A stretch of 64,000 nucleotides of DNA from Granulicella sp. Its GTDB lineage: Bacteria; Acidobacteriota; Terriglobia; Terriglobales; Acidobacteriaceae. This document shows, in pieces, positions 1 to 63,930 of this stretch; position 1 is the first letter of the stretch, and every line of letters starts with the position of its first letter. The DNA lies in assembly GCA_965277925.1 (NCBI GenBank), contig OZ255850.1:2855030-2919029 (forward strand), written 5' to 3'. The notes below the pieces were generated by a model. The model was not told where the DNA came from, did no database searches, and saw only the letters and a list, made by a program, of their open reading frames with translations. Made by a program: the position numbers and the translations under genes.

Positions 1-63
1 CACCCATCCCATCGCATCGAAATGCGCCCCCCGCAACTCCCTGGAAACATCACAAGGCCCGCG

Positions 64-136: not shown

Positions 137-3100
137 CTATATCTTCGTCACCCACGTCCCTGCATCGCAGAACGTCGCATGTCCATCCTGCGAGAACACC
201 CACGCCCCACTTACCGCGCAGGCCCCGCTTGGCGCCGTCACCGGTCCCATCTGATACGGTATCGTCGTCCCGCCATCACTCCCCACCTGGAACTGGTTGC
301 TCGCACCGACATTGAACATCGCGGCCGGACTCTCGCCCCCGATACTCACATCGCCCGCTCCGTTCACCACCACGAAGTCGCCCACAAACGCCTGCCCGAT
401 CTTCAGATTCCCTGTCCCGCCCGCATCGAAGATCTGCCAGTAGTGCCCACTCCCCGGACTCCCGCAACCCGTCTGCAACGAGTTGCACATCCGGAAACCT
501 ACCCCGCCCGTCCCGCTATTCACCAGCGCGAAGCCAAACGGATTCGGCGTCGCATTCACGGTATTGATATTCATCAGGTCGCCCGCCGTCGTCCCCGCTG
601 AATTCACCGCCAGCCCGGCAAAGCTCCCCGTTGTCCCCGAGATCGCCGCCGGCGTCGTCGCTCCGATGATCGCCCCATCCAGCGACGCCGCATGCACCGC
701 CGTCACATTCAGCGTCCCTGCATCGATCGTCCCCGCCGAAAATGCCGCCGGAGAAAACGAGTAAGGCACGCCACTCAAATACCAGGTCGCCGTGCTGCTC
801 TGCGGCTGATAGTTCAGCACATCCCTGCTCGTCGGCGTATCCATCATGAACAGGTTGTACCCCGAGTCCCACCGGTTGCACCCATGCAGATTGCAGTGCG
901 CATAAATCACCGACTGCAATCCCGCATCCACCTCGAAGTCCGTCTGCCACGGCCCCGAAACCACATATCCATCGTCGGGAGCCGTATGCGTTCCACCCGC
1001 GCCCAGATAACTGCTCACCGGCACCGCATTGGTCACCTGCCATCCCCGCAACCCCGGCCCGACATTGCCCAGGTACTGCTTGCCCGCCTGCGCATACTCG
1101 ATCGGCCTAGGCACATACTGCGTGTCCAGCTCCGTGTCCACCGTCACATACTGCTGATAAAAATGCGGCTCCTCGATCGCATCCCCTGCAGCCCACGCAA
1201 CCGTATTGGCTGCCAGCAGAAACGTCCCATCGATCTGCCGGTTCGCCGGATTCGCCACGCTCAGCACCTCCGCCATCGGATACATCGCATAGCTTCCCGT
1301 CACATCCGCTACCGTCCCGCCCGAGCTCGTGCTGTTGGCTCCGGTGTTCGCATACGTCAGCGTTTTCGCGCCCGTCGTCGTCACCGTGTAGCTTCCGTTG
1401 TAGCTCGAATCCGCCACCCCACTCACCGTCAGCGTCACTCCGTTCAGGTCCTCCGGCAGCGCATTCGCCGTCGTCACCGTCACCACATTCGCGCTGCGCG
1501 AGATCGCCGCAACACCCAGCGACACATTCAGATACGCACTCGTGCTGCCATTGCCCTGCCGCCCCACCACCGTCGTTCCGCCGCCGTCCGCGTAGTACAC
1601 ATCCGTCGCGTCGAACGAGCCAATGATCGGAAACACCTGCCGTATCCCGTTCATCGTATCGACCTTCTGCTCCAGCCCATACCCGCACAGCCCGCCCACC
1701 GCGACCACCGTTCCGCTCGCATGTACTTTATTCAGCGTCAACTTCACATGCGTCGCATCCACCACGCTGTAGCTCGCCGTCTCAAACGTCCCGCCCCCCG
1801 GATCGGCCACGCACGCCACGCCATTCGCCGCCAACCCCGCCGTGTTCGTCGCAAACCCCGCGGGCGCACCGCCGGTTTCAATCGCCAGCGTCACCGCTCC
1901 CGGCGCCAGGTTCCCTGGCTGCGAGGTCGCCGCCTGCGCCGTCGCCAGCAGCACGCTCACCGGAAAGTTCGTCCCCGCAAAACTCGCGTACGCCTCGATC
2001 GTCTTCGCTCCCCCCGATATGTACCCGCCCGAGATCGTCTTCGCCGGATTCAGGTCGATCAGAAACCGCCCATCCCCCTGCGTCCCCGCGTTCGTGCTCA
2101 CCGTCAAGTTCAGGTCCGTCGATCCCGCCGTACATCCGCCCGCGCACACTCCCTCAAACACCCGCGAGTCTTCGCTCACCTGCAGGTCATACGGATGCGT
2201 CCCCTCATCCGAGTTGTCCCGATATCCCCCCGACGATGTAATGAACTGTCCGCCCGCCAGGCAATCGCCCACGCTGTAGCAGTTCACAACATTGTTCAAC
2301 TGCACATGCTGCCCCTGCGTGTTGTAATTGCCGGTCAGCGACAGCACTCCATACGTGCTCTTGCCATACGGCAGCTTCTCCAGATTCTGCGGAAACTGGT
2401 TGCTTCCTCCCGCCGCCGCCTCGGTCGAAAGCACCAGCGCCTCCGCTCCGATCCCATACGACCCCGGCCGCAACTGCTGTATCTGTGGGCTCGACAGCGT
2501 CTCCACCTGCGCCAGGCTCGCCCCCGCGCTCAAACTCGTCCCAGTCCCCAGCGGATTGACCACCGTCACCGCCTCCGACCCGCCGCGCGCGTCCACCACC
2601 GCCCCGCCCGACACCACGCTCGAAGCGTTCACCTGGTCCGTCCCGCCATAGCTCGGCTCCACCTTCAGCCTGCATCCACTCGTGCAATCCGGGCTGGCCA
2701 GCGCATTGGCGATCCCGTTGTTCCCCGTCCCATTCGCATACTGGCTCGCATACAGCTCGCCGTTCAAATGGTTCACCTCAAGCTGCGTCCCCGCCGGCTG
2801 TCCCACCACCTGCGTCGCCGCCGGCAGCGTGCTCACCTTGCCGCCCAGCCCGCTCGCAATCGATGCGACATTGCTGTCCACATAGTTCTTGTCCGCCGCC
2901 TGGTTCGGACTCACCGGATCTCCCGGCAACACCAGCGCTCCGGTCATCGTCCCACCCGTGGTCGGCACATACGTCGACCCGCCCGCCGGAAACCCGCTCT
3001 GCGCCTGCGCAATCGCGTTGTCCACATAGCTCTTCGACACCGTCTGCATCGCCACGCTCAGCGGCAGCACCGAATTTTCGATCGCCGCCAGCTTCACCGG

Positions 3101-3466
3101 CGCGCCGCCCGTCGCCACCGCCGGAATCACCCAGTACTGCCGGCTCGTCGTCCCATCGCTCAGGTGAAACACCGCCGTATAGTAGCTCCCTGTTGGCGTC
3201 ACGTTCGCATTCGGCGCCAGCGCAATCGTCAGCGCTCCACCCGCGCCCAGCACCGCCGACGTACTCCCCGCCGCGATCACCTGCCCGCCCGCCGTCGTAA
3301 ATCCGCTCCAGCTCACCAGCACCGTTCCCGCCGCCGTCGATCCATCCGCCAGATACACCGTGTCCTGCACCGTCGTCGTCGCCTGCCCTAACGCGCCCAT
3401 CGTCCACGCCGCCATCACTGCCAGCAGCACCGAAACCAGCGCCAGACCTCGCCTCACTCCACTCAT
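137..3466 (-). CDS. Large secreted phage tail-fibre-like protein (about 1109 aa)
   Basis: ATG at 3466 with GGAGG 5 nt upstream. Sec-type signal peptide (MSGVRRGLALVSVLLAVMAAWTMGALGQ), N-terminal beta-sandwich-like segment, tail-fibre-type motifs YVPTTGGTMTGAL and DPVSPNQAADKNYVD, long Gly/Thr/Ser/Asn-rich beta body. Confidence 0.7.
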   Translation of the reverse strand: MSGVRRGLALVSVLLAVMAAWTMGALGQATTTVQDTVYLADGSTAAGTVLVSWSGFTTAGGQVIAAGSTSAVLGAGGALTIALAPNANVTPTGSYYTAVFHLSDGTTSRQYWVIPAVATGGAPVKLAAIENSVLPLSVAMQTVSKSYVDNAIAQAQSGFPAGGSTYVPTTGGTMTGALVLPGDPVSPNQAADKNYVDSNVASIASGLGGKVSTLPAATQVVGQPAGTQLEVNHLNGELYASQYANGTGNNGIANALASPDCTSGCRLKVEPSYGGTDQVNASSVVSGGAVVDARGGSEAVTVVNPLGTGTSLSAGASLAQVETLSSPQIQQLRPGSYGIGAEALVLSTEAAAGGSNQFPQNLEKLPYGKSTYGVLSLTGNYNTQGQHVQLNNVVNCYSVGDCLAGGQFITSSGGYRDNSDEGTHPYDLQVSEDSRVFEGVCAGGCTAGSTDLNLTVSTNAGTQGDGRFLIDLNPAKTISGGYISGGAKTIEAYASFAGTNFPVSVLLATAQAATSQPGNLAPGAVTLAIETGGAPAGFATNTAGLAANGVACVADPGGGTFETASYSVVDATHVKLTLNKVHASGTVVAVGGLCGYGLEQKVDTMNGIRQVFPIIGSFDATDVYYADGGGTTVVGRQGNGSTSAYLNVSLGVAAISRSANVVTVTTANALPEDLNGVTLTVSGVADSSYNGSYTVTTTGAKTLTYANTGANSTSSGGTVADVTGSYAMYPMAEVLSVANPANRQIDGTFLLAANTVAWAAGDAIEEPHFYQQYVTVDTELDTQYVPRPIEYAQAGKQYLGNVGPGLRGWQVTNAVPVSSYLGAGGTHTAPDDGYVVSGPWQTDFEVDAGLQSVIYAHCNLHGCNRWDSGYNLFMMDTPTSRDVLNYQPQSSTATWYLSGVPYSFSPAAFSAGTIDAGTLNVTAVHAASLDGAIIGATTPAAISGTTGSFAGLAVNSAGTTAGDLMNINTVNATPNPFGFALVNSGTGGVGFRMCNSLQTGCGSPGSGHYWQIFDAGGTGNLKIGQAFVGDFVVVNGAGDVSIGGESPAAMFNVGASNQFQVGSDGGTTIPYQMGPVTAPSGACAVSGAWVFSQDGHATFCDAGTWVTKI

Positions 3467-3664
3467 TGCTCCTCCAACTTCCATCTCTTCGGGCTCAATC
3501 CCAAGCCACAATCCGCATTGAACGGCATCAACTCAGTCATTCGCAAGCCGCTTCAAAAACCATCCAATCCAGCCGTCTCACAAGCCCTTTTGAAAGGGAG
3601 GGGCATCGAAGGTGGCAACTAAGTCCCGTCCCGTTTGCCTCCCGCGCCACCTTCGCCCATCTTA

Positions 3665-3880
3665 TTAGCTGACCGGAGTCGGCCCCGCCACCGGAGCCGC
3701 ACTCGCGACAGCCACGGTCGCCGCCGGCGCAAATGCACTCAGCAGCAGCTCATTGACCGTCTCCGCAAGCTGAATAAAATCCGTCGAACCGAAATGGCCC
3801 AGCGAGACGCCGCTATCGTGCGCAATCGCCAAGCCAATGTTCAAATAGCCAAGAATCGCCTGCAATTTAGACTTATTCAT
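3665..3880 (-). CDS. Small hypothetical protein (71 aa) upstream of and co-oriented with the tail-fibre-like gene
   Basis: ATG at 3880 preceded by GGAGGAG; MNKSKLQAILGYLNIGLAIAHDSG...; Ala/Pro-rich tail. Confidence 0.6.
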   Translation of the reverse strand: MNKSKLQAILGYLNIGLAIAHDSGVSLGHFGSTDFIQLAETVNELLLSAFAPAATVAVASAAPVAGPTPVS

Positions 3881-3943: not shown

Positions 3944-3982
3944 GGGTGGCCCATTCATGACAGCTCCACCGTCATGAGTGGG
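3944..3982. repeat. REP-like palindrome, family A
   Basis: GGGTGGCCCATTCATGACAGCTCCACCGTCATGAGTGGG; related copies at 4636-4674, 7762-7800 and 47461-47499. Confidence 0.85.
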
Positions 3983-4071
3983 GAGCTCCACATCCCGCGC
4001 GTGCCCCCACATTGCGCCCCGCCTCATCCACCCGCTACCATCGCCTCTAGCACCTGCACCGAAAGGCACTC

Positions 4072-4305
4072 ATGGACTCCAGCAACAACTCCGCCCGCCG
4101 CTCCGAAGACATCGCCCTCGACCTGCTCAAATTCGTCGCGTCCCACGCCAACGTCGGCAGCAAATCCGCCTCCTCCACACCCGGCTTCGGCCTTCCCTCA
4201 GCAGCCAAACCCGAAGACCAGATCACCCAGATCCTCGACCTCTACGCCCGCTGCCGCGAAGCCGTCGAATCTCCCCTTCCACCCGCCGCTCCATCGAAAA
4301 AGTAG
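4072..4305 (+). CDS. Small hypothetical protein (77 aa)
   Basis: Host-like codon usage, AAAGG upstream, two amphipathic helices (EDIALDLLKFVA, QITQILDLYARCREAV); probably co-transcribed with the downstream oxidoreductase. Confidence 0.65.
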   Translation: MDSSNNSARRSEDIALDLLKFVASHANVGSKSASSTPGFGLPSAAKPEDQITQILDLYARCREAVESPLPPAAPSKK

Positions 4306-4312
4306 CCGAGCC

Positions 4313-5590
4313 GTGCGCGAAGCCGTAACTCCCCAGCCCGACGCCATCCCTGCTCCGCACGATCCCTCCACTCCCCTGCGCGTCGCCGTCATCGGCGCCG
4401 GCGCCTTCGGGCGCAACCATCTCCGCGTCTACCGCGAACTCGAAACCGCGCATCCCGACCTCGTCCAGCTCGCCGCGCTCGTCGAACCCGACCCGACCCG
4501 ACGCGCCGATCTCGCCGCCCTCTACAACATCCCCGCCTTCGCCACCGTCGCCGATCTCCTCGCCGCCCCACCCCCACAGAATTGTCATCCTGAGCGCAGC
4601 GAAGGACCTGTTTTTGTCCTTCAGCCACAATCCCCGGGTGCCCCATTCACGATGGCTTCATCATCGTGGGTGGGGTCGCACAACTCCCACGAGCAAGCAA
4701 TCCACCCCATCCACGCCGCCTCCATCTGCGTCCCCACCGTCCACCACGCCGCCGTCGCCGAGCAGCTCCTCCTCGCCGGCCTCGACATCCTCATCGAAAA
4801 ACCCTTCGCCGCCACCCTCGCCGAAGCCGACCACCTCTGCGCCCTCGCAGCCCAACACGCCCGCATCCTTGCGGTCGGCCATTTAGAGCGCTTCAACCCC
4901 GCCGTCACCGCGACCCTCGCCGCCCTCACCCACCCCATGTTCTTCGAGGCCCACCGCCTGAGCATCTTCACCCCGCGCTCCCTCGACGTCGACGTCGTCC
5001 TCGACCTCATGATTCACGATCTCGACATCGTCCTCGCCCTCACCCAATCCGCGGTGAAAGAAGTCCGCGCCGTCGGCCTGCCCATCCTCTCCGCCAAGAC
5101 CGATATCGCCAACGTCCGCCTCGAATTCGCCTCCGGCTGCGTCGCCAACTTCACCGCCTCCCGCGTCTCCACCGAGCAGGTCCGCAAGCTCCGCCTCTTC
5201 CAGCCCCACCAATATCTCTCCCTCGACTTCGCCCGCCAGGAGCTCCTGACCATCTCCGTCGACCCCGCCATCACCGCGCAGCCGGCTGCCCCACCTCTCG
5301 CGTCCGAGGCCAACCCACCGGCTGCCCCGCCTTCTGAGATGTGGGCGGGCAGCGCCACCGCGCCACCCGCCGCACAGCACCCCTCCGCCGGCCTCTCCCT
5401 CACCCGATCCGGCTTCCCCAAAGCCGAACCCCTCCGCCTGGAGCTCGAAGACTTCCTCCACGCGGTCCGCACCCGCACGCAACCCCGCGTCTCCGCCGAA
5501 GCCGGACGCGCCGCCCTCTCCCTCGGCCTCGAAATCAACGCCCAGATCGCCGCCCACGCCCGCCGCACCGGCCTTAAAAACAGTGATTAG
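4313..5590 (+). CDS. Gfo/Idh/MocA family oxidoreductase
   Basis: Rossmann VAVIGAGAFGRNH, EKP motif (ILIEKPFA), VGHLERFNPA, DLMIHDLDI. GTG start at 4313 is estimated. Carries an in-frame REP-derived insertion at about 4570-4700. Confidence 0.9.
   Translation: MREAVTPQPDAIPAPHDPSTPLRVAVIGAGAFGRNHLRVYRELETAHPDLVQLAALVEPDPTRRADLAALYNIPAFATVADLLAAPPPQNCHPERSEGPVFVLQPQSPGAPFTMASSSWVGSHNSHEQAIHPIHAASICVPTVHHAAVAEQLLLAGLDILIEKPFAATLAEADHLCALAAQHARILAVGHLERFNPAVTATLAALTHPMFFEAHRLSIFTPRSLDVDVVLDLMIHDLDIVLALTQSAVKEVRAVGLPILSAKTDIANVRLEFASGCVANFTASRVSTEQVRKLRLFQPHQYLSLDFARQELLTISVDPAITAQPAAPPLASEANPPAAPPSEMWAGSATAPPAAQHPSAGLSLTRSGFPKAEPLRLELEDFLHAVRTRTQPRVSAEAGRAALSLGLEINAQIAAHARRTGLKNSD
4583..4610. repeat. 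REP-like palindrome, family B, inside the oxidoreductase CDS
   Basis: TGTCATCCTGAGCGCAGCGAAGGACCTG; close copy TGTCATCCCGAGCGCAACGAAGGACT at intergenic 10081-10107. Confidence 0.85.
4636..4674. repeat. REP-like palindrome, family A variant, inside the oxidoreductase CDS
   Basis: GGGTGCCCCATTCACGATGGCTTCATCATCGTGGGTGGG. Confidence 0.8.
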
Positions 5591-5640
5591 TGATTAGAAA
5601 AAGAACTCCGGGTCCCACATCCCACTCGCGGGGGCCCCCA

Positions 5641-5760
5641 ATCCTCTACTCCTTACCCACTACCCACTACCCACTACCCACTACCCACTGTCTCTCACCA
5701 ATCCTCTACTCCTTACCCACTAACCACTAACCACTACCCACTAACCACTGTCTCTCCCTA
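5641..5760. repeat. Nested tandem repeat: two 60-bp units, each with about five TACCCAC/TAACCAC heptamers
   Basis: 5641-5700 and 5701-5760 both begin ATCCTCTACTCCTTACCCACTA and end near CCACTGTCTCTC; located between convergent genes. Confidence 0.9.
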
Positions 5761-6651
5761 CTCCACCTTCTGCACCGCCGCTTCCGGCGGAATCTTTAAC
5801 TCGAACTGGTCGCTCTCAAACGGCGCATTCAGCGTCAGCTTCGTCACCACGATCTTCAGCGAATACTCATCCAGCGGCCGTTGAATCGTGATCACCGTCG
5901 GAAACTTCTGCCCATTGAACTCCTGGTACTTGTTATAGGTCGCCAGCGTCACGATCTTCCCGTTCTCATACGTGTCCTGCTCATACGGCAGCATCGTAAT
6001 GCGGCTGATATGCACCACCCGCTCCCGCATCATGATGTTGCCGGTCTGCGGTTTCAGCACCGTAATATCGTAATCCGGCTCCTCCACCGCATCTTTATGC
6101 TTCGACTCCGGCGCGATCACTCGCGTCGATTCCGTCAGCGTCACAAACTCATCCTTCGCCAACCCCGGCACCAGCAGCGAATCCAGAAATACCGCCGGCC
6201 GCAGATTCTCCAGCGCGTTCTTCGACGGCTTCGTCACCGTATTGCTGCCTGTCATCCACACATCGCCATGCCCGGCCGTAGCGTGCACCAGCGTAAACAT
6301 CTTCCCGTCGCTCACCATATCCAGCGCCCGCGATCCCACCAGCGGCAACTGCAGAATCACCCGCAGCATCGCCGGCTTCTGCACAAAAATATACCCTCGG
6401 AACGACGTGTAAACCGTCACCGTCCCTTCCTTCGCCCCACCCGTGCTGGCCGTAATCAGCACGCTCGCATTCAGCGTCTTCAGCGCCGCATCCCGCGCCG
6501 ACAGCTCCTGCTCCAGCGTCCCCACGCTGGCCGTCCGGTACATATCCGGCGCCAGCACCTTCTGCACGACGTGCGTCGTCCGAAAGCAGCCGGTCAGCCC
6601 TGCCATCATCACCACAGCCAGCGCCGATAGCGGTCGAAAATCTCTCATCAA
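5758..6651 (-). CDS. Lipoprotein, LolA/LolB-like (DUF4292-like)
   Basis: Lipobox GLTG-C; motifs FRGYIFVQKP and LDMVSDGKMFTL; C-terminal DEYSLKIVVTKLTLNAPFESDQFELKIP is typical of LolA/B-fold proteins. Confidence 0.65.
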   Translation of the reverse strand: MMRDFRPLSALAVVMMAGLTGCFRTTHVVQKVLAPDMYRTASVGTLEQELSARDAALKTLNASVLITASTGGAKEGTVTVYTSFRGYIFVQKPAMLRVILQLPLVGSRALDMVSDGKMFTLVHATAGHGDVWMTGSNTVTKPSKNALENLRPAVFLDSLLVPGLAKDEFVTLTESTRVIAPESKHKDAVEEPDYDITVLKPQTGNIMMRERVVHISRITMLPYEQDTYENGKIVTLATYNKYQEFNGQKFPTVITIQRPLDEYSLKIVVTKLTLNAPFESDQFELKIPPEAAVQKVE

Positions 6652-7263: not shown

Positions 7264-7953
7264 CTATCCCCTTTGCAATGAACCTCCTGCAGCCGCCGCA
7301 CGCGGCCTCGACTCTTGACAGTCCTTCAGCGGCTCCAGCATCCGGGCCGCCAGCAGCAGTTCCGTCAGCCGGTCCAGCGCCTCCGCATACCGCCGCACAC
7401 AGCTCCGCAGGCTCAACCCCAGCATCGCCGCCGCTTCCCCTTGCGTGTACTGCTGCAGCGCGATCCGCTTGATCAACTGCTGATCCAGCCGCTCCAGCTT
7501 CGACATGCACTTCTCCATATCGAAGCAGAAGATCACCACGTCCTCGAAGCTATGCATCCGGTAGCTCGACACATGGCCGCGAAACATCTCCCGGCCCATC
7601 AACGAGGGCACCCGCCCCGTCTGCATCGAGAGCCGCAGATACCGCCGCAGCATCCCCTCCGTGTACTTGCGATAGAACGCCACCTCCACCTTCGGCGCTT
7701 CCACCGCCCCAACTCTGGGCGACAGGGTGGGCTTGGGTGGCTCCTCCACCGCCCCAACTCTGGGTGGCCCATTCATGCCGGTTTTATCGTCATGAGTGGG
7801 GAACTCCTCCACCGCCCACACCTGTGGCAGCACCGCTACCACCCGTCCCGTGCTTCCCTCCCGGATCACCTGCCCCGGCTCAACCCTCTGCACCCGCTTC
7901 GGCACCAACACCAACCTTGCTGCCATTTGCTCATTTCCCATTTCCTTCTTCAT
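7264..7953 (-). CDS. Sigma-70 region-4-like HTH protein (phage late-regulator-like, 229 aa)
   Basis: ATG overlaps the upstream stop (ATGA at 7950-7953). C-terminal LERLDQQLIKRIALQQYTQGEAAAMLGLSLRSCVRRYAEALDRL fits a sigma r4/RinA-ArpU-type HTH. Contains a REP-derived insertion at 7699-7810. Confidence 0.65.
   Translation of the reverse strand: MKKEMGNEQMAARLVLVPKRVQRVEPGQVIREGSTGRVVAVLPQVWAVEEFPTHDDKTGMNGPPRVGAVEEPPKPTLSPRVGAVEAPKVEVAFYRKYTEGMLRRYLRLSMQTGRVPSLMGREMFRGHVSSYRMHSFEDVVIFCFDMEKCMSKLERLDQQLIKRIALQQYTQGEAAAMLGLSLRSCVRRYAEALDRLTELLLAARMLEPLKDCQESRPRAAAAGGSLQRG
7762..7800. repeat. Family-A REP inside the sigma-r4-like CDS
   Basis: GGGTGGCCCATTCATGCCGGTTTTATCGTCATGAGTGGG, flanked by direct repeats CCACCGCCCCAACTCTGGG. 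Confidence 0.85.
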
Positions 7954-8144
7954 CGAGCACCTCCCACGCACACAGCCGTTCGCACAGCCTTGCGTTTCGG
8001 CCCTCGCCGTCTGCCCGTCCGTGGTGCCGGAAACTCCGCCAGCCACGCCGCGCATCCGCCGCAGTAAACTCCAGCGCTCAGGGGACGCAACCACAACGTT
8101 CCGCACCCTTCACATACCTTCAATTCCACGCGAAAGTCCTTCAT
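7950..8144 (-). CDS. Small zinc-ribbon protein (64 aa)
   Basis: CEGC...YCGGC double CxxC plus a basic tail; purine-rich leader GGAGAAGAAAGAA; stop coupled to the next start. Confidence 0.7.
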   Translation of the reverse strand: MKDFRVELKVCEGCGTLWLRPLSAGVYCGGCAAWLAEFPAPRTGRRRGPKRKAVRTAVCVGGAR

Positions 8145-60930: not shown

Positions 60931-62070
60931 CTATCTTCGCCGCCGGCCGGCCGGCCGGTGTGCTGGACGATGCGCCATGCGCTTGTTCCGCGTAGCCTTG
61001 CTGTCGTGGGCGGCAGCGCCAATCGCAGTGGTCGCATCGGTCGGCTCGTTCCGCGCCCGGTAGCTCGCCACATTCGCGTTGTGTTCGGCTAATGTCGCCG
61101 CAAATCGGGTTGCCCCGTTGGCGTCAGCAACGAAGTACAGATAATCCGTTCTGGCTGGGTGCAGCGCGGCCTGGAGCGCCGCCAGCCCGGGATTGCAGAT
61201 CGGCCCGGGCGGCAGCCCTGCATGCGTGTAGGTGTTGTAGGCCGAATCCGAGTGCAGCTCGCTCTCAAGGATCGCGCCCGTCCAACTCCCGCGAGTCCCC
61301 TGCAGCAGCGACGCGTAGATCACCGCCGGGTCGGTCTGCAACGGCATTCCGGCCGCCAGCCGGTTCTCGAATACGCTCGCCACCACGGGCCGCTCCGGGT
61401 CCAGATGCACCTCCTTTTCGACCAGCGAGGCCATCGTCACCGTTCGCTGCACGTTGCCCTGCATGCGCAGGCCGTCGGCCACCTGGCCGAAGCGGCGCAC
61501 CATCACGCTCAGCATCTGCACCGGCGTGGCGCGGGGGCTGAAGCGGTAGGTGTCGGGAAAGAGGAAGCCCTCCAGCGACTGCGGCTTCGGATTTTTCGCG
61601 TTCGTCCACGCCGCGATCAGCTCGGTGTGTTCGACCTCGGCCTGCAGGAACGCGTCGCGCGTGCTCAGCCCCGCTCCCGCCACCGCGTTGGCGATATCGA
61701 AGATGTTGAAGCCCTCGGGAATGACCACCGTCTGGGTGTAAACATCGCCGCGGCGAATGCGGTCGTACACCTCCGCCAGCGTGGCCGGACGATCAAACCT
61801 GTATCCGCCGGCCTTCAACGAGGCAGCCCGGGTTCCACCGCGAAGGCCCTTCCACACCTTCATGGCCTCGAAGGCAGCCGCGCTGCGAACGACCCCGGCC
61901 TGCTGCAACTCGCGCGCGATCTCCGCGGTGCCGGTGCCGGGCGCGATGTTCACGAACGTCGCCGCCTTCGGCCCGAAGGGCGTACCTACCAAAACGCCGA
62001 CGGCTGCCGCTGCCAAGGCCGCGAGAATCGCCAGGACCAACACCACCTTCAACAGCCGCACACGCACCAC
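60931..62070 (-). CDS. mltG: Endolytic transglycosylase MltG
   Basis: VVIPEGFN, LEGFLFPDTY, MASLVEKE, PLQTDP, YNTYTHAGLPPGPICNPG, YLYFVA. Confidence 0.95.
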   Translation of the reverse strand: MVRVRLLKVVLVLAILAALAAAAVGVLVGTPFGPKAATFVNIAPGTGTAEIARELQQAGVVRSAAAFEAMKVWKGLRGGTRAASLKAGGYRFDRPATLAEVYDRIRRGDVYTQTVVIPEGFNIFDIANAVAGAGLSTRDAFLQAEVEHTELIAAWTNAKNPKPQSLEGFLFPDTYRFSPRATPVQMLSVMVRRFGQVADGLRMQGNVQRTVTMASLVEKEVHLDPERPVVASVFENRLAAGMPLQTDPAVIYASLLQGTRGSWTGAILESELHSDSAYNTYTHAGLPPGPICNPGLAALQAALHPARTDYLYFVADANGATRFAATLAEHNANVASYRARNEPTDATTAIGAAAHDSKATRNKRMAHRPAHRPAGRRRR

Positions 62071-62150
62071 CTCTTGGTTCGAATTCTATCCGTCGGGCTG
62101 GAGGCTGATGTATGCAGCCCGCGCGATGCGCGAGGCCTTACACTGAGCCG

Positions 62151-62702
62151 GTGGAACTCCGTCCCCGCATTCTCGCGCTCGACGTCGGCGATCGCCGCAT
62201 CGGTCTGGCAATCACTGACGCGCTCGGCCTCACTGCGCAGCCGCTCTTCACGATCCACCGCGCCACTCCTAAACCCAACCTCCGCGCTGATCTTAAGTAC
62301 ATCGCTCGCTTCATTCGCCAGCATCACGTAACCACGCTGGTGGTCGGCAATCCGCTGCACGCCGACGGCTCGCCGAGCGCCCAATCCGCGAAAGCGCAGG
62401 CCTTCGCGCTTTCGCTTCAGCAGGCCCACCCTACCCTCACGCATCATCTGTTCGACGAGCGCCTGACCACGCTCGAAGCGCACGCCCTGCTCGATCGGGC
62501 CGGCCGCGCGAGGCGTTCGGTCGGCCGCTCCGAACGCATCGCGCGCAAGGAGCTGATCGACCAGGTCGCCGCGACCCTGCTACTCGAAAGCTTCCTCTCT
62601 CTCAAAGGCCCCGTCCTGCTGCCCGATCCCGACGCGGCTCCCGGCCCGGACGCCCAACCGGCCACCGCTCAGGATGCCGGTTCCGACCGCGACTCCGTAT
62701 AA
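62151..62702 (+). CDS. ruvX: YqgF/RuvX family pre-16S rRNA nuclease
   Basis: ILALDVGDRRIGLAITD, LVVGNP, FDERLTT, IDQVAATLLL. Start is estimated. Confidence 0.92.
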   Translation: MELRPRILALDVGDRRIGLAITDALGLTAQPLFTIHRATPKPNLRADLKYIARFIRQHHVTTLVVGNPLHADGSPSAQSAKAQAFALSLQQAHPTLTHHLFDERLTTLEAHALLDRAGRARRSVGRSERIARKELIDQVAATLLLESFLSLKGPVLLPDPDAAPGPDAQPATAQDAGSDRDSV

Positions 62703-62784
62703 TGGAGCTTTCACTCTCAGCCTGCCGTTCGATCACGAGGCACAGCAAATTCGACCGCAAGGCAAAGCAAAGCAGACCTCACGC

Positions 62785-63261
62785 ATGGAAGACATCAAAA
62801 GAGCGCTCGAAGAGCAAATCAAGGCGCTCGAATACGAGCTCACCACCGAACTCCCCGCGGAGATCAAGAAGGCGGTCGCGCTGGGCGATCTCAGCGAAAA
62901 CGCCGAGTACCACTCCGCCAAGCAGCGCCAGGAGTTCGTCAACGCGCGGCTCGGCCAGCTCAAGAAGCGCATGGGCGAACTCGCCATGGTCAACCTGGAC
63001 AACATCCCGCGCGACCGCGTCGGCTTCGGGTCGACGATTGTCGTCTTCGACAGCACCAAGGACGAGCAGATCACCTACAAACTGGTCACCAGCGAAGAGT
63101 CCGATGTGAGCAAGGGGTTGATCTCGACGACGTCGCCCATCGGCCGCTCGCTGATTGGCAAAGAGGTCGGCGACACGGCGACGGTGGTCACGCCCAACGG
63201 CAAGCGCGAGCTGGAAGTGCTGAAGCTCACCACCATTCACGGCGCTGTTCCGGCCCTGTAA
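62785..63261 (+). CDS. greA: Transcription elongation factor GreA
   Basis: GDLSENAEYHSAK, VGFGSTI, ISTTSPIGRSLIGKEVGD. Confidence 0.95.
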   Translation: MEDIKRALEEQIKALEYELTTELPAEIKKAVALGDLSENAEYHSAKQRQEFVNARLGQLKKRMGELAMVNLDNIPRDRVGFGSTIVVFDSTKDEQITYKLVTSEESDVSKGLISTTSPIGRSLIGKEVGDTATVVTPNGKRELEVLKLTTIHGAVPAL

Positions 63262-63294
63262 GCCCATCCGCGATAGACTTGAAGCCGCGACGAA

Positions 63295-63930
63295 ATGACC
63301 TGGACACGTGCCTTCGGCAAGGGCAGCGGCTGGCTGCTGCAAAAGATCGTCAACGGTCTCGCCCTGTCGCGCATCTCGCCGAATACCCTGACGTTCATCG
63401 GCCTCCTGATCAACGTCATCGCGGCGTTCTTCTTCGGCTTCGCGCGCGCTAACAACTACGTTCGCATGTTCTTCTACGCGGGCCTGGTCATCATCGCCGC
63501 GGGCCTGTTCGATATGGTCGACGGCCGCGTCGCGCGCCAGACCAACCAGGTCTCGGTCTTCGGCGCGTTCTTCGACTCGGTCCTCGACCGCTACTCCGAT
63601 GTCGCGCTGTTCTTCGGCCTGCTGGTCTTCTACGCGCGCGGAAACCGCTACTTCTATGTGTTTCTGGTGGCCTTCGTGATGACCGCCGCGCTGATGGTGA
63701 GCTACACCCGCGCCCGCGCCGAAGCGCTCATCGGTTCCTGCAAGGTCGGCTTCATGGAGCGGCCCGAGCGCGTCGTGCTCATCATCCTTGGCGCGCTCTT
63801 CGCCCGCTGGGGCGCGATGGCCCCTGCGCTCTGGGTGCTGGCCGTGCTCTCCACCATCACCGTCATTCACCGCATTCGCTACACCTACGTCGAGACCAAA
63901 CGCCGCAACCTGAAGCTCGCTCCGCGGTAA
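63295..63930 (+). CDS. CDP-alcohol phosphatidyltransferase
   Basis: SPNTLT; DMVDGRVAR...FGAFFDSVLDRYSD signature. Confidence 0.93.
   Translation: MTWTRAFGKGSGWLLQKIVNGLALSRISPNTLTFIGLLINVIAAFFFGFARANNYVRMFFYAGLVIIAAGLFDMVDGRVARQTNQVSVFGAFFDSVLDRYSDVALFFGLLVFYARGNRYFYVFLVAFVMTAALMVSYTRARAEALIGSCKVGFMERPERVVLIILGALFARWGAMAPALWVLAVLSTITVIHRIRYTYVETKRRNLKLAPR

Follow-up and report, generated by a model that had tools for sequence, protein, structure and literature searches.

The window analysed here is a stretch of 64,000 nucleotides from a Granulicella species of the family Acidobacteriaceae (assembly GCA_965277925.1, contig OZ255850.1, positions 2,855,030 to 2,919,029 of the forward strand). 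Near its left end lies a gene for a long, phage-type fibre protein, referred to here as the fibre. The gene is an open reading frame (ORF) of 1109 codons on the minus strand (window 3466..137) with an ATG start. It is single-copy in the source genome, which consists of one 4.98-Mb contig, and its GC content at third codon positions (0.79) is similar to that of the adjacent same-strand genes. It is the first gene of a cluster of about 17 kb that codes for a terminase, a portal, a putative capsid protein, an adaptor and a baseplate-hub protein. Judged by its sequence, the fibre appears to be a tail-fibre-type receptor-binding protein that is routed through the Sec pathway, which departs from the norm of its family. 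Its parts are given below in the order of translation; confidence values are pLDDT (predicted local distance difference test) scores of an AlphaFold2 model, and a slash marks a signal-peptide cleavage site here and throughout.

3469..3475, minus strand: Shine-Dalgarno sequence GGAGGAG, read directly, before the ATG at 3466.
3386..3466, minus strand: Sec-type signal peptide, residues 1-27, with n-region R5 R6, h-region L8-W21 and predicted cleavage at ALG/Q28.
3071..3385, minus strand: N-terminal beta-sandwich, residues 28-132; pLDDT 80-89; present in 134 of 151 family genomes.
2771..3070, minus strand: fibre stem, residues 133-232, with K-x-YVD and GGTMTG-x-L motifs; low pLDDT when modelled as a monomer.
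677..2770, minus strand: conserved beta-rich body, residues 233-930, with five invariant cysteine pairs in alignment A1.
251..676, minus strand: variable distal shaft, residues 931-1072; unconserved in A1, pLDDT below 50.
137..250, minus strand: C-terminal tip, residues 1073-1109 plus the stop codon, with Cys1083 and Cys1100; pLDDT 70-84.

The N-terminus of the fibre, MSGVRRGLALVSVLLAVMAAWTMGALG followed by QATTTVQDTVY, contains the three parts of a Sec signal peptide for signal peptidase I (SPase I), namely a basic n-region, a hydrophobic h-region in which 7-15 residues are usual, and small residues at positions -3 and -1 of the cleavage site (A25-L26-G27/Q28). Residues 2-25 form a single helix in the AlphaFold2 model, and Q28 is invariant in alignment A1. 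The signal-peptide call is based on simple heuristics (Kyte-Doolittle hydrophobicity of the h-region, K/R residues and a small-x-small/Q site) together with conservation. A large protein collection holds at least 844 relatives of the fibre. The best 120 of these share 50-86% identity over 80-100% of the length, and their named sources are Granulicella and Acidobacteriaceae only. Their N-termini align as K/R, a hydrophobic stretch, A-x-A/Q and then a nearly invariant TTTVQDTVY.ADG. The 10-residue Kyte-Doolittle mean of the h-region is at least 2.0 in 116 of the 120, K/R precedes it in 101, and small-x-small followed by Q is found in 113. The signal peptide is retained in about 95% of homologues. 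Of 14 orthologues from distant genera, 13 carry it as well, as do every fibre copy from genomes devoid of particle genes (described below) and 99 of the 107 representatives that could be assessed among the 12,863 cluster representatives of an exhaustive profile search (E<=1e-3). The cleavable signal peptide proposed in a first-pass annotation of this DNA is thus borne out. That annotation had also suggested checking whether homologues start downstream of the hydrophobic segment; they keep the segment, and the conserved mature start lies right behind the AxA/Q-type site.

The same heuristics were applied to two control sets. None of 25 phage-contig proteins with the same fibre motif has a signal-peptide-like N-terminus, and neither does any of the structural proteins gp1-gp21 of the siphophage Tunturi 4. 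The highest control score, exactly 2.0, belongs to Tunturi 4 gp16, which has neither a basic n-region nor a cleavage-type motif. Export by the Tat pathway is unlikely from the sequences: the fibre reads VRRGLAL, but its homologues read KRG, SRG, KRV and the like, and the twin arginine is not conserved. A lipoprotein signal was rejected for the window protein, which has no cysteine near the cleavage site. In six relatives (P0012, P0023, P0025, P0027, P0047 and P0048), the h-region ends in L-x-G-C lipobox-like strings some 8 residues ahead of AxA/Q, and some family members may accordingly be lipoproteins instead of SPase I substrates.

The cysteines of the fibre are a second, independent sign of extracytoplasmic life. 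The window protein has 14 of them in seven local pairs, and ten are invariant in alignment A1 as five near pairs. Moreover, the mature part holds an even number of cysteines in 115 of 119 homologues; by chance, about half of them would do so. Even counts and local pairing argue for disulfides and hence for folding outside the cytoplasm. Taken together, the conserved signal peptide and the cysteine pattern suggest that the fibre matures outside the cytoplasm, and on this sequence evidence the protein is almost certainly exported, in line with the earlier proposal and with support that the proposal did not include.

The three fibre motifs recognised in the first pass are located in the stem: SKSYVDNAI at residues 144-152 (window 3011-3037), YVPTTGGTMTGAL at 166-178 (2933-2971) and DPVSPNQAADKNYVD at 183-197 (2876-2920). 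The stem motif region recurs in 26 phage contigs of IMG/VR. The AlphaFold2 model, a monomer built from a 59-sequence alignment with a mean pLDDT of 63.7, consists mostly of strands, which fits the predicted 900 or so residues of small-residue beta structure. It shows a signal helix (2-25), a confident beta-sandwich (31-130), a body that is best resolved over residues 430-770 with high pLDDT, a disordered-looking segment (931-1072) and then a small confident tip. In a Foldseek search against the PDB, the top matches are the neck of phage XM1, the neck fibre of A-1(L), the tail tips of Bxb1 and Ur-lambda, and the collar of DEV, all beta-sandwich proteins, with modest E-values. Against viral models, 28 matches have E<1e-3, and proteins of tails, tail fibres and baseplates are among them. 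The Pfam family BppL_N (PF18338), which describes the N-terminal domain of the receptor-binding protein of phage TP901-1, matches the stem region in 6 of 15 orthologous N-terminal modules, with a best E of 9.9e-8, but not the module of the window protein itself. These domain, contig and fold matches uphold the description of the protein as fibre-like. Searches of the full-length fibre against Pfam, NCBIfam and PHROGs gave nothing useful, no curated family spans the protein, and a sequence search against the PDB returned only spurious GGGPS matches (E about 0.02).

Homologues vary in length from 937 to 1542 residues. Only about a dozen of the matches in the 134 genomes extend over the full length; the remaining ones cover only profile positions of about 10-207, in frames of 400-3100 residues. 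From these alignments, family-wide conservation is limited to the first 210 or so residues, and the remainder is swapped. The C-terminal tips fall into a few types that are mosaic across genera. A conserved proximal part with an exchangeable distal part is the pattern of receptor-binding fibres, and by sequence the anatomy is that of a classic receptor-binding fibre, in which a conserved proximal anchor of about 210 residues carries a swapped distal end. Like tail fibres in general, the fibre is also encoded within a structural gene cluster, upstream of the large terminase gene (TerL) in 16 of 16 loci. It differs from them in its signal peptide and disulfide signature, as the fibres of all characterised tailed phages are, to our knowledge, made and assembled in the cytoplasm and have no signal peptide. 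Some family genomes have two tandem fibre genes. Tandem signal-peptide fibre genes are found before the terminase in G048:C1:5175530-5180926 (809 and 893 aa) and G143:C1:4612814-4616310 (1013 and 1056 aa), an arrangement that resembles phages with two receptor-binding proteins.

The genes around the fibre are phage-derived on one side and include a putative regulator on the other. Two of them reach into the window:

1..7, minus strand: start of the large terminase gene, which continues to the left of the window (genome 2855036..2853405); Terminase_6C, phrog_2.
7264..8106, minus strand: sig280, a putative regulator resembling Sigma-70 region 4; Pfam Sigma70_r4_2, E 1.6e-4, below the gathering score.

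The gap between fibre and TerL is 130 nt, both genes are on the same strand, and neither a terminator-like site nor a promoter match was found in it. TerL is followed by genes for a HipA-like kinase, a DUF3037 protein, a portal (PF04860), p209, p137 and p323, then by a head-tail adaptor (phrog_442), p127, p179, p326, p800 and finally p74. The protein p323 stands at the capsid position and has only weak matches to the Pfam families SU10_MCP and GP7; it is a putative capsid protein by sequence and position. The model of p800 (800 aa) is of low-to-moderate confidence, and its best 21 PDB matches (E<1e-3) are all baseplate hubs or central spikes, among them Mu gp44, the spikes of the antifeeding prophage (AFP), Photorhabdus virulence cassettes (PVC) and other extracellular contractile injection systems (eCIS), Listeria gp18, 80alpha and VgrG. 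Additionally, p800 is 24% identical to gp15 of the siphophage Tunturi 4. Profile searches of the PDB with p800, p326 and p323 gave no matches. Among the cluster ORFs scanned there is no integrase, repressor or replication gene, and no second fibre-like gene was found in the cluster, which is flanked by cellular genes.

In most genera, about 1 kb separates the regulator gene sig280 from the fibre gene downstream of it. The present genus, Granulicella sp. 5B5 and one metagenome-assembled genome (MAG) have an insertion between the two; here it spans window 3974-6651 and holds a Gfo/Idh/MocA oxidoreductase gene on the plus strand and the gene of a LolA-like lipoprotein, p297 (5758-6651, minus strand). 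At the other end of the cluster, p74 (genome 2841619..2841395; L002:1366-1590, minus strand) codes for 74 residues that form a coiled coil at the N-terminus and a transmembrane helix at the C-terminus, and could be a holin-like or release factor. The HipA-like and DUF3037 genes between terminase and portal (L002:12389-13255 and L002:11383-12303, both minus strand; genome 2853284..2851412) match the PADLOC candidate pair PDC-M66A/B with E-values of 4e-7 and 4e-10, and the pair occupies that place in 15 of the 16 loci compared. A pair of this type acts as a stand-alone phage defence of the toxin/antitoxin kind (PMC12548924).

The cluster is widely conserved in the family. The order sig280, fibre, TerL, HipA-like, DUF3037, portal, p209, p137, p323, adaptor, p127, p179, p326, p800 is identical in 16 of 16 loci from at least 15 genera (Granulicella sp. 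5B5, an ENA MAG and 14 further genera), as far as each stretch reaches. A match to p74 at the cluster end was found in two of them. The fibre adjoins the terminase in L003, L004 and five more complete genomes, and it is never apart from TerL in the 16 loci where the cluster exists. The capsid-position gene p323 was detected in 101 of the 151 genomes of the family and in 84 of 116 genera; with few exceptions it is single-copy, and its identity is 69-88%. It is missing in about a third of the genomes. Sampling across the phylum found the N-terminal module in Acidobacteriaceae only, apart from two genomes of a sister family (f4), which were not counted as carrying the system as they have only the signal peptide and beta-sandwich, without p323. 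Distances between N-terminal modules track those of the neck and tail proteins best, although this mirror-tree comparison of 8 taxa gives a weak trend (r 0.79-0.86). Head-tail genes are present, integration, replication and lysogeny genes are absent from the ORFs scanned, and single copy number, conserved order across genera and purifying selection speak for vertical inheritance. From its gene content, which is that of a head plus a short tail, the cluster looks like a domesticated, vertically inherited phage element resembling a gene transfer agent (GTA). A tailocin was rejected, as TerL, the portal and the capsid-position gene are present and conserved. Widespread Terriglobales "proviruses" have been described (PMC11924767, PMC5900883, PMC12142844), and none was called a GTA there. 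A GreA-RuvX-YceG flank is common to L003 and L004. This block stands directly beside sig280 in Granulicella sp. 5B5 and the ENA MAG but about 53 kb away here (window 61042-63927), which suggests that an insertion or rearrangement including a second complex I region separates the two in this genome.

Relatives of the fibre are also encoded by lytic phages of the same host family. Residues 234-858 of the fibre match gp12 of phage Tunturi 2 with 25% identity (BLASTP, E 7e-11), and the fibre tip is 75% identical over 36 aa to the gp12 C-terminus of the Tunturiibacter phages Tunturi 1 and 2. The gp12 proteins (PP887698, PP885685; XOB77086.1) resemble the fibre in body, tip and length (1190 aa). They also share a Sec-like N-terminus (ASA/Q), a high cysteine content (20 residues) and a place in the tail module of a tailed phage; in Tunturi 2 the N-terminus is a textbook-like signal peptide, MKKFIQLALLFILPAAASA/Q. 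They differ in that the region behind the signal peptide lacks the beta-sandwich and the BppL_N-like stem, and in belonging to a lytic 63-kb podophage rather than a chromosomal cluster, where they are annotated as hypothetical. In Tunturi 2 (L075, PP885685.1, 9802-22744; also L005), six consecutive tail-module genes, gp12-gp17, all have Sec-type signal-peptide-like N-termini. Of these, gp13 is annotated as "tail fiber", gp14 as "pectin lyase" and gp17 as "virion structural protein"; gp15 and gp16 belong to the same block. The large proteins gp12, gp13, gp14 and gp17 have 10-34 cysteines each, and gp15 and gp16 two each. The terminase, portal, capsid, gp11, gp31, gp32 and gp34 of Tunturi 2 have no signal-peptide-like N-termini. 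Fibre-like proteins with an apparent export signal are thus not confined to the chromosomal element, since a plaque-forming phage that infects this host family encodes them too. A general rule that all acidobacterial phages export their fibres was rejected, as the structural proteins of Tunturi 4 lack signal peptides. The paper describing Tunturi 2 makes no mention of signal peptides. The earlier premise that tail fibres have none holds generally but not for this phage, with its six signal-peptide-like tail-module proteins.

Considering these findings, the fibre is proposed to be an exported, disulfide-bonded, phage-type and probably trimeric receptor-binding fibre of a GTA-like particle, docking outside the cytoplasm; the chances of this reading are put at about even. 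Export, the trimeric state, docking after lysis and receptor binding are what we infer for the protein. In this scheme, the fibre would be exported by Sec and cleaved at ALG/Q28, and the mature protein would fold oxidatively with about seven disulfides. Its N-terminal module, the beta-sandwich and BppL_N-like stem, would be the docking part, and its distal part would be exchanged between lineages and with lytic acidobacterial phages. Since DNA packaging needs ATP, heads and tails should form in the cytoplasm, so that the fibre could meet the particle only once the inner membrane is breached. Its most likely docking site would then be the hub-type tail tip, reached in the periplasm or in the lysate, and the fibre would give the particle its target specificity. 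Attachment of the fibres is the last and a spontaneous step of T4 assembly in vitro, which makes such docking chemistry plausible. Fibres stabilised by disulfides may be needed in acidic soil, and this may have driven the arrangement. A particle fibre is the reading that accommodates most of the features: export and oxidative folding, the anchor module, the swapped receptor end shared with a lytic phage, strict linkage to a terminase/portal/hub cluster in which no other fibre gene was found, and the lack of a terminator before TerL. A broader claim is advanced tentatively: that in Acidobacteriaceae and at least one podophage lineage, the fibres of terminase/portal particles are Sec-exported and disulfide-bonded, and either attach to the particle once they have left the cytoplasm or serve on recipient cells as landing adaptors. 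Such two-compartment assembly would be a route not described for tailed phages or GTAs, and it would operate in a family-wide GTA-like element, so far unrecognised, of a dominant soil phylum.

Several points weigh against a particle fibre that docks outside the cytoplasm. We know of no precedent among tailed phages for docking after lysis. The window fibre has no Pfam match at E<=1. The pLDDT of the stem (133-232) is below 50 in the monomer model, as expected when a stem that is probably trimeric is modelled as a monomer. Furthermore, about 470 residues of p800 lie outside the hub fold, and p800 could itself bind receptors. The Tunturi 2 block gp12-gp17, which is separate from the structural proteins gp31, gp32 and gp34, may consist of secreted accessory proteins and not of virion components. 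A further objection comes from orphan fibres. Long intact fibres (1029-1821 aa) persist without the genes from TerL to p800 in at least five genomes, each of a different genus, namely G116 (L037), G013 (L038), G022 (L039), G087 (L040) and G042 (L043). The signal-peptide-bearing orphans are accompanied by sig280, p74 or both, with p74 beside the fibre in L040 and L043, and their N-terminal modules are 35-38% identical to that of the window protein. The loci L037 and L039 come from different genera, are collinear over 20 kb and have one ancestral deletion in common; their fibres are nevertheless intact and 59% identical, with a ratio of nonsynonymous to synonymous substitution rates (dN/dS) of about 0.14. 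This value falls within the range of pairs from cluster-bearing genomes (0.06-0.16). Over these orphan fibres dN/dS is 0.14-0.29, and short fibre forms (373-450 aa) are constrained as well, at 0.16; synonymous divergence is saturated in all pairs, so the ratios are rough, yet clearly below 1. Intact fibres under constraint imply a function independent of the cell's own particles.

These orphans speak for the foremost alternative, that the fibre acts autonomously in the periplasm, on the surface or in the medium, where it would serve as an adhesin or would bind or degrade exopolysaccharide. It would be co-regulated with the particle genes, for instance to free or disperse particles or to bind surfaces, without being part of the particle. 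This is possible, although we consider it less likely than a particle fibre. The Sec signal and disulfide signature suit it too, as do the constrained units of sig280, fibre and in places p74, and the Tunturi 2 homologue is grouped with an exported-looking protein of pectin-lyase fold. On the other hand, a conserved module of about 210 residues with a swapped remainder is the pattern of docking to a conserved partner, the N-terminal module resembles virion-anchoring domains, and no enzyme or adhesin family was detected in Pfam, NCBIfam or PHROGs. Moreover, many capsid-less genomes have only truncated fibre genes (about ten genomes without the cluster), and the fibre never parts from TerL where the cluster exists. 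The first-pass annotation had offered both a fibre repurposed for an exported role of its own and a particle assembled outside the cytoplasm. The former draws support from the constrained orphans, and the gene cluster turns the latter, in the form of a particle component joining outside the cytoplasm, from a remote option into a serious one.

A recipient-side or protective role is quite improbable. In such a role, the tip would bind the cell's own surface glycans, and the N-terminal module would serve kin particles as a landing adaptor, or the receptor would be masked from phages with the same tip. The tip is 75% identical to its counterpart in a lytic phage that infects a related host, which is consistent with this, export would be independent of lysis, and retention of the gene, with its recognisable module, in genomes unable to make particles would be explained. 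The idea is purely inferential, however, as neither an anchoring motif nor a precedent is at hand, and it leaves the phage-encoded homologue unexplained.

It is very improbable that the fibre is an ordinary prophage tail fibre with a mis-called start or a non-exported hydrophobic N-terminus, and the cluster a decaying prophage. The conserved Terriglobales "proviruses" of published surveys may correspond to the cluster (PMC11924767, PMC5900883), but the strong Shine-Dalgarno sequence at the ATG, the conserved mature sequence that directly follows the cleavage site in over 100 homologues and the parity of the cysteines, which points to disulfides, all speak against such a start error. A single-copy, syntenic cluster with a capsid protein of 69-91% identity and no integrase match among the ORFs scanned likewise misfits both repeated infection and decay. 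A trimeric autotransporter adhesin, the JGI label on P0006, P0021 and P0070, can be given next to no probability: YadA-family adhesins are likewise long, signal-peptide-bearing and probably trimeric fibrous proteins, and the fibre is rich in Gly, Thr and Ala, but it has no YadA anchor, Hep_Hag or HIM match at E<=1, lacks their head and neck repeats, and ends not in a membrane beta-barrel but in a small, disulfide-locked tip of 37 aa shared with a phage protein.

Among known systems, the lactococcal lower-baseplate receptor-binding protein BppL of TP901-1 is like the proposed particle fibre in its conserved N-terminal anchor and variable receptor-binding distal part, and a hub-type tail tip accompanies each of them (p800 here). 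BppL is a cytoplasmic protein of about 160 aa that is not known to have a signal peptide, whereas the stem of the fibre follows a beta-sandwich and precedes some 900 more residues. The tail fibres and head spikes of the Rhodobacter capsulatus GTA (RcGTA) are likewise host-recognition appendages of a domesticated, vertically inherited cluster without integration or replication genes, and both systems have a sigma-region-4-like regulator nearby, GafA in RcGTA and sig280 here. In RcGTA, the genes for these appendages lie away from the main cluster, and their products are not known to bear a signal peptide; no sequence relationship to the fibre was found. The pIII protein (g3p) of Ff phages is a phage receptor-binding protein with a Sec signal peptide and periplasmic disulfides that joins the particle at the envelope, and in these respects it resembles the fibre as proposed here. 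Ff phages have single-stranded DNA, are extruded and possess neither terminase nor portal, pIII is anchored in the membrane by a C-terminal helix, and the two proteins show no homology.

Assembly of tailed phages is described as a cytoplasmic process. If the proposed mechanism is true, a fibre that crosses the inner membrane first would add a compartmental step to it, and the reason would probably be that acidic soils call for disulfides. Searches of soil viromes for receptor-binding proteins would change as well, since ORFs with signal peptides are usually dismissed as host genes. Furthermore, the fibre would be the specificity module of an apparent family-wide domesticated phage in a very abundant group of soil bacteria, and as such a natural handle on GTA-like DNA exchange among these bacteria and on the partners involved. 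The orphan copies offer a natural experiment on the role of the fibre without the particle.

Two minor features concern gene starts around the cluster. A 71-aa ORF upstream of the fibre (3880..3665) has a Shine-Dalgarno sequence but was set aside, as tblastn gave a match in 0 of 16 related loci. Peptides of the MGHPG or MGHPE type occur in several minus-strand ORF translations (genome 2845973, at the start of p179; window 4389-4646; genome 2854142-2854357) and probably derive from REP-like repeats of the window. As the tblastn alignments of p179 start at residues 7-12, its true start probably lies about 11 codons downstream.

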